Shown: piece by piece, positions 46,892-48,952 of the stretch
How the letters are laid out: each line of letters opens with the position of its first letter
How positions within the stretch are numbered: the stretch's first letter is position 1
NCBI RefSeq assembly: GCF_058153355.1
Contig: NZ_CM177019.1
Strand: one strand, 5' to 3'
DNA length: 64,000 nt
Program-made: the position numbers and the translations under genes
Notes under the pieces: generated by a model
Database searches by the model: none
Told to the model about the DNA's origin: nothing
The model's input: only the letters and a program-made list of their open reading frames with translations

Positions 46892-47617
46892 TCAGAAAAG
46901 AGAAGATTGCTGTGGAATAGCCGGAACTGCTCCGATCTCTGGAAGTGTTTTACGTAAGCCTTCCCAGAGGGTATGTACCAGTTCCGGTGCCTGGGCAATA
47001 TCTGGCGTATGTAAAAAAAGATAAGGCGTAGTGGTCTGATGCCACTGCGCTAATTTTTGTAACCAAACCTGAAACAACTCTCGGTTTTGCGTCATATCAT
47101 CACTACCGATAAAACGGATCAGCGGATTTGTCGCCGTCAGCACAGCATGTACGGGAACTTTAGGTTTTTTCCGTTGAGCGTCGCGAATAGCTTCACTGTT
47201 TGGGCGTGCTGCATGAACCGGGCGGCTGTCTAAAATCACCCGATTAACGCTGCGCTGATGTAAACCGCGATTAAGTGTTTGTTCCTCTTCCCCTTTGGCG
47301 AAAAACTGTGGATGGCGGACTTCCACACCATAATTAAACTCGCCGGGAAGAGAGTCGAGAAAATGCCAAAGCGCAGGCAGATCCCGTGGGCCAAATGTGG
47401 CAGGCAGTTGCAGCCAGTATTGCCCAATGCGCGGAGCCAGCGGTGACAAGCGAGTCAAAAATTCAGTTACTAAATCATCGCAATGCCGTAATGCTGCCTG
47501 ATGCGAAATGGTCGCCGGAAACTTAAAACAGAAGCGAAAATTATCTGTGGTCTGCTCACGCCAGCGCAGGACAACCTCGGGTTTCGGCAGAGCGTATAGC
47601 GTGGTGTTGCCCTCCAC
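46892..47617 (-). pseudogene. yecE: yecE (DUF72) lacking its 5' end; about 30 N-terminal codons displaced by the prophage insertion
   Basis: 241-aa ORF begins at a GTG immediately next to the integrase stop; the full-length length (~272 aa) is from memory. Confidence 0.65.
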
Positions 47618-47643
47618 ACAGTTAACATGACGGGTATTAAAAG

Positions 47644-48952
47644 CTAACTCACTGATTTTAATAAGCCTCTTGTGTCACTTTGGTGACCATGGGACATCAT
47701 TGGGACATAATCTGCCAGCTTCTGATTCAGCATTGCGATCTGTTCTGCATTGCTGTCAGTCATCCATGCTCCGTATACATTGAACACCATCTGGGCACTT
47801 GCATGCCCCATCTGGCTGGCAATGAAGCTTGGATTTGCTCCGGCAGATAATGACCAGCACGCATAAGTGTGTCGTGACTGGTATGCCTTTCGATGCCTGA
47901 TGCCTGCACGTTTAATGGCTGTTTCCCATGAGTCGCCAATGGAATCTACCTTGTAGATAAAACCTACCTGTTTGCTTTTTCTAACCACCTGGGGGTTAAA
48001 TACGAAAGTACATTCATGATTTACTGAACGTCCATATTCACGTAGTTGAACCTTGATGTTGTGCTGCTTACCCAGTCTTGTCATTTCAGCCTGATTTTTC
48101 AGGACACTGATAGCGGGCTGGATAAGATGCACAACCCTGTTTGTACTTGCTTCAGTTTTAGGTAGAGTGAACTCACCGAGTTTCGTATAATTGCGCCTGA
48201 TAGTAATTGTTCCTGCTTTCAGATCGATATCTTCCCAGGCCAGGGAGACCAGTTCACCATGACGCATTCCTGTGTACACAGCCAATGACCACAGGTTTTT
48301 TGTCTGCTGATGCCGGCAAGCATCTATCAGGCGAATAAATTCGTCACGAGTTAGCGGATCTGGTTCTGCCCTGGCTCTTTTAAGAGGCTTAATTCCCTCG
48401 AAGGGATTTGCTTCTAAGTAACCGTGCAGCAAACTGAAACATTCCAGCGATTGTTGTCATGTAATAATTTACTGTGACAACGCTTCGTCCTTTTACTGGA
48501 GCTTTACCTTTTGTTGGATTTTGGTATCCGGTCAGCAAATCTTTCCTGATATACAGCAATTCCTCTTTGGTCACTGCTGATACCAGTCGGTTGCCACCAA
48601 TCTTCGGAACCATCATCCTTGCAATGGATTCATAGCGATTGAATGCATTTGCAGAGATTTCCATTCGTTTCAGATCCAGCCATTTTTCTTCAAGTTCTTT
48701 CACCGTAATTTCTTTTTTATTTACCCCAAAAGCCTTGAGGTTAGGAGAGTCAGGGAACTGCGCAGCATAATCAAAATTTCCTGTACGAATGGCAAAACAT
48801 ACAGATGTCCGCAGCTCTCCGGCGATCTTCCTGTTCTTGGCAGTGTCAGGGACACCAAGATTTTCCCTGACACGTTTACCTTTAAAATTAAACCAGATGC
48901 GTAATGTGCCACCGTGGTTTTCGACGCCTGTTGGATATTTGACTTTATCCAT
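47644..48952 (-). pseudogene. int: phage tyrosine integrase, split by a frameshift into 187-aa and 262-aa ORFs
   Basis: ORFs 48389..48952 and 47644..48432 overlap in different frames; C-terminal part carries catalytic-region motifs (HRKAYQSRHTYA ... NVYGAW). Confidence 0.8.

Follow-up and report, generated by a model that had tools for sequence, protein, structure and literature searches.

The DNA considered here is a stretch of 64,000 nucleotides from contig NZ_CM177019.1 (RefSeq assembly GCF_058153355.1), referred to below as the window, to which all coordinates apply. Between 13361 and 47625 it consists of Escherichia coli-type chromosome, whose terminal gene order is torZ, cmoB, cmoA, yecN and a truncated yecE, here designated yecE'. 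The latter is a 3' fragment on the minus strand (46892..47625) that extends from codon ~29/32 through codon 272 to the stop, and its DNA, the att core included, is of host origin. From 47626 onwards the sequence belongs to a prophage, the left 16.4 kb of which (47626..64000) accommodate an integrase gene (int), an excisionase gene (xis), an early region, immunity and replication genes, Q, a cluster of tRNA genes and the start of a holin gene before running off the window end, so that the far end of the element falls beyond 64000. The int gene (47644..48952, minus strand) encodes a tyrosine integrase of the type found in phage φP27 and is a pseudogene split by a 5-bp deletion; it is followed by xis (49008..49244, minus strand). 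The boundary between yecE' and int is very probably an attL site (B-O-P'), produced when a temperate phage of the φP27 type entered yecE by site-specific recombination of the λ kind. Junctions of this kind are already known and the present one is an ordinary case, yecE being a long-known hot spot of phage integration; here the prophage boundary can be fixed to the base, with the core at 47619-47625 and phage DNA starting at 47626.

The host-prophage boundary

The host side of the junction is defined by comparison with K-12, in whose reference genome yecE has 272 codons and overlaps the yecD stop, with aspS lying further on. A single alignment block at 96.7% identity links window 13361-47637 to the araF-to-yecE region of K-12, and synteny stops at 47637: when the 5' end of K-12 yecE, yecD and aspS were used as query, no match was found in the window past this position. 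The phage side is defined by φP27, as window 47615-49882 aligns with bases 1-2273 of the phage record at 96.5% identity. Both observations bear out the proposal, made in an earlier note on this DNA, that a prophage meets the host chromosome inside the 5' part of yecE. The P' arm of the phage still matches yecE at 8 of 12 positions (47626-47637), and megablast alignments to intact yecE accordingly run on to 47633-47637. Unbroken identity with uninterrupted yecE ends at 47625, save for a polymorphic base at 47618. This homology breakpoint is reproduced against several independent comparators and is not a statistical motif.

The earlier note had described a yecE reading frame on the minus strand reaching 47617 and an integrase frame ending at 47644, with the att core expected in the 26 nt between them. 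The yecE frame is indeed open at 46892..47617, encoding 241 amino acids of a DUF72/YecE fragment from a GTG start assigned mechanically, and the integrase stop codon is a TAG at 47646-47644; the frameshift further inside int had been overlooked. Host yecE does not end at 47617, since host-derived sequence extends to 47625 at most. The intervening 26-mer ACAGTTAACATGACGGGTATTAAAAG (47618-47643) is composed of one host base, at 47618, a 7-bp core, CAGTTAA, at 47619-47625, and 18 nt of P' arm. The gap therefore holds the core as predicted, although the 11-bp att annotated for φP27, placed at 47615-47625, reaches 3 nt into what had been taken as the reading frame. With up to three mismatches allowed, no second copy of the 26-mer is present in the window. 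The 18-nt spacer that separates the core from the int stop codon (47626..47643) partly resembles the displaced yecE sequence; the records of φP27 and PhiR49_2 contain it, as do the left junctions of all relatives examined.

In the proposed course of events, a phage tyrosine integrase with an N-terminal arm-binding and a C-terminal catalytic domain would pair an attP site reading ...gtCA(CG/TG)CAGTTAAcatgacggg... with an attB site in yecE codons 29-31 reading ...ccCA(CG/CA)CAGTTAAagtggcggg..., and strands would be exchanged inside the common core at 47619-47625. The outcome is a split yecE: its 3' 241-244 codons stay beside yecN, where phage DNA of the P' arm adjoins them and the int stop codon is 18 nt off, while the initial 31 codons, yecD and any promoter from which yecD-yecE is expressed would move to the far prophage end, beyond the window.

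The att core and the position of the crossover

The GenBank record of φP27 (AJ298298) annotates an 11-bp att, CACGCAGTTAA, with attL at 1-11 and attR at 42565-42575. The corresponding bases of the window (47615..47625) read CACACAGTTAA and match this sequence at 10 of 11 positions. The core could be narrowed further by comparing both junctions in three complete genomes, those of MFDS1019527, FDAARGOS_944 and SE11, with the contiguous attP of phage CharmingMan and with empty attB sites. CAGTTAA is the only stretch that is identical in attB, at both junctions of the three genomes and at both φP27 ends; on the coding strand it reads TTAACTG and corresponds to yecE codons F29-N30-C31. In K-12 the attB site is ccaCG CAGTTAA agtggcgggcat, the right side beginning agtggcggg, and in the window the left junction is ccaCA CAGTTAA catgacgggtat, the right side beginning catgacggg. 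MFDS1019527 shares the window form at its left junction (ccaCA CAGTTAA catgacgggtat) and reads gtcaTG CAGTTAA agtggcgggcat at its right junction, while FDAARGOS_944 and SE11 both show ccaCG CAGTTAA catgacggg on the left and tcaCG CAGTTAA agtggcggg on the right. The contiguous attP of CharmingMan is gtcaCG CAGTTgA aatgacggg, with six of the seven core bases. When far arm, core and int-side arm were put together as a synthetic attP, the match to CharmingMan extended across the core, which confirms that in a packaged genome the prophage ends meet at this point.

The single position at which the window departs from the φP27 att is the A at 47618, which turns the yecE codon TGC into TGT. This base is a host polymorphism, since uninterrupted yecE alleles carry it: 15 listed records of intact yecE with this A match at 100% over all 60 nt, and a 60-nt yecE query bearing the CA variant returns up to 567 records at ≥99% identity. 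An origin in the phage or in a mutation acquired after integration was considered and rejected as unnecessary, given that intact alleles with the same base exist.

Where exactly the strands were exchanged is a question on which the relatives are not equally informative. An exchange outside CAGTTAA, either further left in CAC(G/A) at 47615-47618 or in the partly homologous segment 47626-47637, is unlikely. It would accord with the 11 bp, rather than 7, that the φP27 authors annotated as att, with the identity of all 11 bp at both junctions of SE11 and FDAARGOS_944, and with a sister phage type that shares 21 bp with attB, extending rightward. Owing to that very identity, SE11 and FDAARGOS_944 cannot discriminate between the positions. 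To the right of CAGTTAA, the sequence is of phage type at the left junction in the window, MFDS1019527, SE11, FDAARGOS_944 and φP27, and of host type at those right junctions that reach past the core; the exchange was therefore not to the right of it. On the left, MFDS1019527 provides a contrast, as the dinucleotide preceding CAGTTAA is the host-type CA at its left junction and the phage-type TG at its right junction. The two forms segregate with the arms, which places the exchange to the right of the dinucleotide. The simplest reading is thus that strand exchange occurred within CAGTTAA at 47619-47625, a limit set by one genome; the conservative statement of att remains the published 11 bp at 47615-47625. 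An overlap of 7 bp is the length typical of λ-family integrases.

The integrase lesion and putative arm-type sites

The φP27 record shows a 437-amino-acid integrase gene at 30-1343 followed by an excisionase gene, and the layout in the window is identical. Over int and its short flanks (47600-49000) the window has a nucleotide identity of 96.2% with φP27 and of 95.5% with MFDS1019527, with one 5-nt gap. This gap is a deletion of CAGAT located between ~48425 and 48428, where the window reads TTTGCTG-----CACGG: all five intact comparators (φP27, PhiR49_2, MFDS1019527, SE11 and FDAARGOS_944) have TTTGCTGCAGATCACGG, as against TTTGCTGCACGG in the window. As a result of the frameshift int is divided into two open reading frames, one encoding the N-terminal 187 amino acids, which represent the arm-binding domain (Pfam PF12167, E = 1e-24), the other the C-terminal 262 amino acids, which represent the catalytic domain (PF00589, E = 7e-19). 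The lesion is specific to this lineage. When the frameshifted 187-amino-acid product was used in an exact-protein look-up, it was found in three contigs of the Logan assemblies; one of these, from run SRR31441161, was read and is identical to window 44001-52000, including the int lesion. More than one assembly thus shows the lesion, though the Logan contig may come from the same strain. The arm-binding and catalytic domains are parted by the deletion, and without outside help the prophage is probably unable to excise and would be fixed in place.

The adjacent xis product matches Pfam PF06806 (DUF1233, putative excisionase; E = 1e-32), and its homologues are labelled 'putative excisionase' in the φP27 record and 'excisionase family protein' in the RefSeq annotation of MFDS1019527.

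The arm-binding domain may have a counterpart in the DNA near the core. Two tandem 11-bp repeats, TGGGACATCAT and TGGGACATAAT, lie on the plus strand at 47690..47711 and may be Int-binding sites of the P' arm type. They conform to the pattern TGGGACAT(C/A)AT and contain the hexamer GGGACA at 47691 and 47702, inside the 3' coding region of int and 66-77 nt from the core. Pairs of GGGRCA spaced 11 bp apart in a single orientation recur in the relatives, with two pairs in the P (far) arm of φP27 and MFDS1019527, and the arrangement is repeated on either side of the contiguous CharmingMan attP, in a phage just ~80% identical. The background frequency of GGGRCA in the window and in φP27 is 0.6-0.7 per kb. 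This pattern fits the interpretation that the paired repeats are putative arm-type sites for the PF12167 domain, the P' copies being embedded in coding DNA.

Fate of yecE

The fragment of yecE retained beside yecN has neither the native start nor the first 28-31 codons of the gene. Intact YecE begins MIYIGLPQWSHPKWVRLGITSLEEYARHFNCVEGN…, and the native N-terminus MIYIGLPQWSHPKW… (residues 1-31) is absent from the window. Aligned with this N-terminus, the GTG at 47617 proves to be an internal codon, Val32, and not a start. In the Pfam DUF72 profile (PF01904) the fragment matches positions 22-214, compared with 10-215 for intact K-12 YecE. Neither an ATG, GTG or TTG in the yecE frame nor an obvious Shine-Dalgarno sequence is present upstream of 47617; a full-length yecE with a start of its own next to the junction, which would have argued against truncation, is therefore not what lies here. 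A scan for promoters and terminators between int and yecE' yielded nothing above the shuffled background, and a literature search on the function of DUF72/YecE returned nothing useful. The 3' fragment is devoid of the native start and of the N-terminal portion of the DUF72 fold, and yecE has most likely lost its function.

An alternative is that the phage end supplies a working N-terminus, such that a chimeric YecE of ~256 amino acids starts in phage DNA and is co-transcribed with int, with an expected N-terminal peptide …ISELAFNTRHVNCVEGN…. The notion arises from the yecE frame itself, which is open for 19 codons into phage DNA, to 47674 (…HKRLIKISELAFNTRHVNCVEGN…), with a stop at 47677-47675, and from the phage arm, which retains the R-H-x-N-C codons of intact YecE. 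Furthermore, int and yecE' share the same orientation, no terminator-like site was found between them, and a 771-nt coding sequence for a 256-amino-acid DUF72 protein, overlapping the 3' end of int, is annotated by RefSeq through the Prokaryotic Genome Annotation Pipeline (PGAP) in MFDS1019527, SE11 and FDAARGOS_944. In the genome stretches compared, these coding sequences are located at NZ_CP169309.1 3001-3771, NC_011415.1 48829-49599 and NZ_CP065613.1 48816-49586, respectively. Against this stand the annotated start codon, which in SE11, as read, is an ATT in phage DNA, the want of any conventional start or ribosome-binding site upstream of the Val32 GTG, and the replacement of 28 native N-terminal residues by unrelated sequence, whereby the Pfam match begins 12 profile positions later than in intact YecE. 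Homology between attP and attB around the core, of which the sister integrase type carries 21 bp, is a simpler explanation for the similarity that persists. On balance a functional chimera is highly improbable, and the idea that the phage restores yecE was rejected as unlikely in view of the ATT start and the missing N-terminal DUF72 segment. Less probable still is the suggestion that the P' arm of φP27-type phages may be shaped in such a way that lysogens make a usable YecE from a non-canonical phage codon by transcription from the int side; if true, a host gene of unknown function would be under prophage control instead of being destroyed.

The 256-amino-acid DUF72 annotation at occupied sites looks like a systematic annotation artefact. 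The practical value of the present case is chiefly one of annotation: the 241-amino-acid 'yecE' reading frame is a truncated gene, the equivalent of which is called a 256-amino-acid DUF72 protein in public genomes.

The far end of the prophage

The earlier note had placed some 30 N-terminal codons of yecE beyond the other end of the prophage. The indirect evidence agrees with this, as the core falls in codons 29-31 of the 272-residue protein and a displaced 5' stub is present in all three relatives: in MFDS1019527, FDAARGOS_944 and SE11 a 31-codon stub of yecE is found next to yecD past the far end, at a distance of 39-48 kb. In MFDS1019527 the stub reads MIYIGLPQW…ARHFNC-MTGLF*. The directly repeated core beside the rest of the split gene is likewise present in these three genomes, and the core is repeated in the φP27 record. 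An intact far end of the window prophage would be expected roughly 40-50 kb on and would read …tca(NN)CAGTTAAagtggcgggcat…, or, with the dinucleotides known from the relatives, …tca(CG/TG/CA)CAGTTAAagtggcgggcatactcttc…, followed by yecE codons 28-1, yecD and aspS.

FDAARGOS_944 (NZ_CP065613.1, 452000-501999) is the closest relative in the int-xis segment, at 99.5% identity over 47796-49882. IS600 is present three times in its prophage, once within int, and several structural genes there are frameshifted. At the yecD-side end it is flanked by ipaHd, a type III secretion system effector gene, which lends the genome a character reminiscent of Shigella or enteroinvasive E. coli.

The decay seen in this relative raises the prospect that the junction in the window is a relic, the far end or the yecE 5' part and yecD having been lost by deletion or rearrangement so that no matching attR survives. 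The integrase is already a pseudogene, the prophage of FDAARGOS_944 is broken up by IS600 insertions and frameshifts, and the far end falls outside the window. This scenario is nevertheless improbable: all three relatives examined retain the yecE 5' stub and yecD beyond the far end, and the 16 kb of prophage sequence covered here are colinear with φP27-like early regions and harbour no insertion sequence element. Even if it were true, the identity of the junction at 47619-47625 would be unchanged.

Several points weigh against the interpretation of the junction as a φP27-type attL that has disrupted yecE. The far end of this prophage lies beyond the window, and only relatives show the direct repeat and the 5' stub of yecE; the one matching public contig that was read ends inside the prophage and gives no far junction. 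The 7-bp limit derives from MFDS1019527, in which a mutation after integration could also explain the difference between the two junctions. Finally, the equivalent chimeric reading frame is annotated by PGAP elsewhere as a complete protein, and if such a protein is expressed yecE would not be simply inactivated.

Gene content of the prophage and distribution of the insertion

Beyond the junction, 55% of the query 47600-64000 matches φP27 at 93% identity, in segments spanning φP27 bases 1-17266, and the early region is a mosaic with other lambdoid and Shiga toxin (Stx) phages. The morphogenesis genes fall beyond the window end. Relatives that share this int have tails of a different, λ-like kind, so that the integrase type is no guide to the remainder of the phage. 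Downstream of the Q/methylase region, four tRNA genes of the Met-type CAT, Arg-TCT, Thr-TGT and Gly-TCC kinds are clustered at 63218-63528. No stx reading frame was found in any of the three forward frames over the ~0.3 kb that follow the cluster, after which the holin reading frame begins and (within 63529-64000) runs off the window end. The candidate identification as a Stx-converting prophage was rejected on the grounds that the tRNA genes are succeeded by holin, with no stx frame; the prophage is a non-Stx relative of φP27-type phages.

Two further genes may be mentioned. A SPFH/Band_7 lipoprotein-like gene is situated just past xis (49870-50511), and a TumE-family toxin with an HVO_A0114-type partner occupies window ~55.9-56.6 kb, where it was placed by colinearity with an identical Logan contig (774-1422).

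As regards distribution, the 3-kb yecE'-int-xis arrangement is carried by 170 of 5,426 complete E. coli genomes (~3%), while a contiguous attB 60-mer is found in 4,799 of the same 5,426 (~88%). Among complete RefSeq E. coli genomes the best full-length match is 98.4% for the yecE'-junction query and 97.8% for the 3-kb junction query. The host backbone is that of a rather divergent lineage of E. coli or Shigella outside the complete-genome set.

Comparison with known systems

The insertion site has a history of its own. In PMC8065619, which cites Recktenwald & Schmidt 2002 for the first demonstration, yecE figures as an established insertion site of Stx phages, with φP27 as the founding case; it is also described as a phage insertion site in PMC8112680, and later studies of Stx2e, O145:H28 and other Stx-producing E. 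coli report insertion in yecE. With this hot spot for Stx and non-Stx lambdoid phages known since 2002, the present junction holds little new biology.

A structure akin to that expected at the far end of the window prophage, namely far-arm-like sequence, core and yecE 5' codons, occurs in φ80 (JX871397.1 23368-23453), mEp237 (JQ182730.1 22072-22157), P-EibC (AF151674.1 8138-8224) and PPompW records (e.g. LC567822.1 43495-43579). The φ80 record annotates its match as an N-terminal DUF72 fragment. In PPompW a yecE-like sequence of ~100 bp has been described as a secondary attB inside prophages, 'attB-in-PP_1' (PMC8112680). These yecE 5' fragments look like fossil attR sites; they differ from the window junction in that they reside inside phage genomes, not in chromosomal yecE, and none is located in the window.

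The yecE-integrating Stx1a and Stx2a phages of O145:H28 and O157 have a 21-bp att (Nakamura et al. 2021, PMC8112680). They use the same yecE target and the same CAGTTAA centre as the window phage, but their P' arm copies ~21 bp of yecE (CACGCAGTTAAAGTGGCGGGC), whereas the window phage diverges right after CAGTTAA. The sister integrase, represented by a prophage in NZ_LR881940, has 77% amino-acid identity to φP27 Int and is accompanied by paired GGGGCA repeats.

At the level of general design the junction resembles attL of λ, which combines an arm-binding Int, a short core, int and xis at attL and repeated arm-type sites. The window shares the heterobivalent tyrosine integrase, the short common core, the position of int and xis beside attL and, putatively, repeated arm-type sites, paired GGGRCA motifs being found on both arms in the relatives. 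In contrast, λ targets a site between gal and bio and has another core, whereas the target here is inside a coding gene; moreover, the P' arm in the window overlaps the int coding region, and the number and spacing of its arm sites are putative.

The closest parallel is φP27 itself (AJ298298 / NC_003356), a Stx2e phage integrated at the same position of yecE. Its att agrees at 10 of 11 bases, the mismatch being a host allele; the int-xis order and the 18-nt distance from the int stop to the core are the same, and the int region shows 96% nucleotide identity. The two elements differ in that φP27 has ileZ-argO-stx2e where the window has four tRNA genes directly before holin, and in the mosaic early region and the 5-bp frameshifting deletion of int in the window. 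With a disabled integrase and no stx gene, the window prophage is probably an immobile, non-toxigenic relative of this Stx2e phage.

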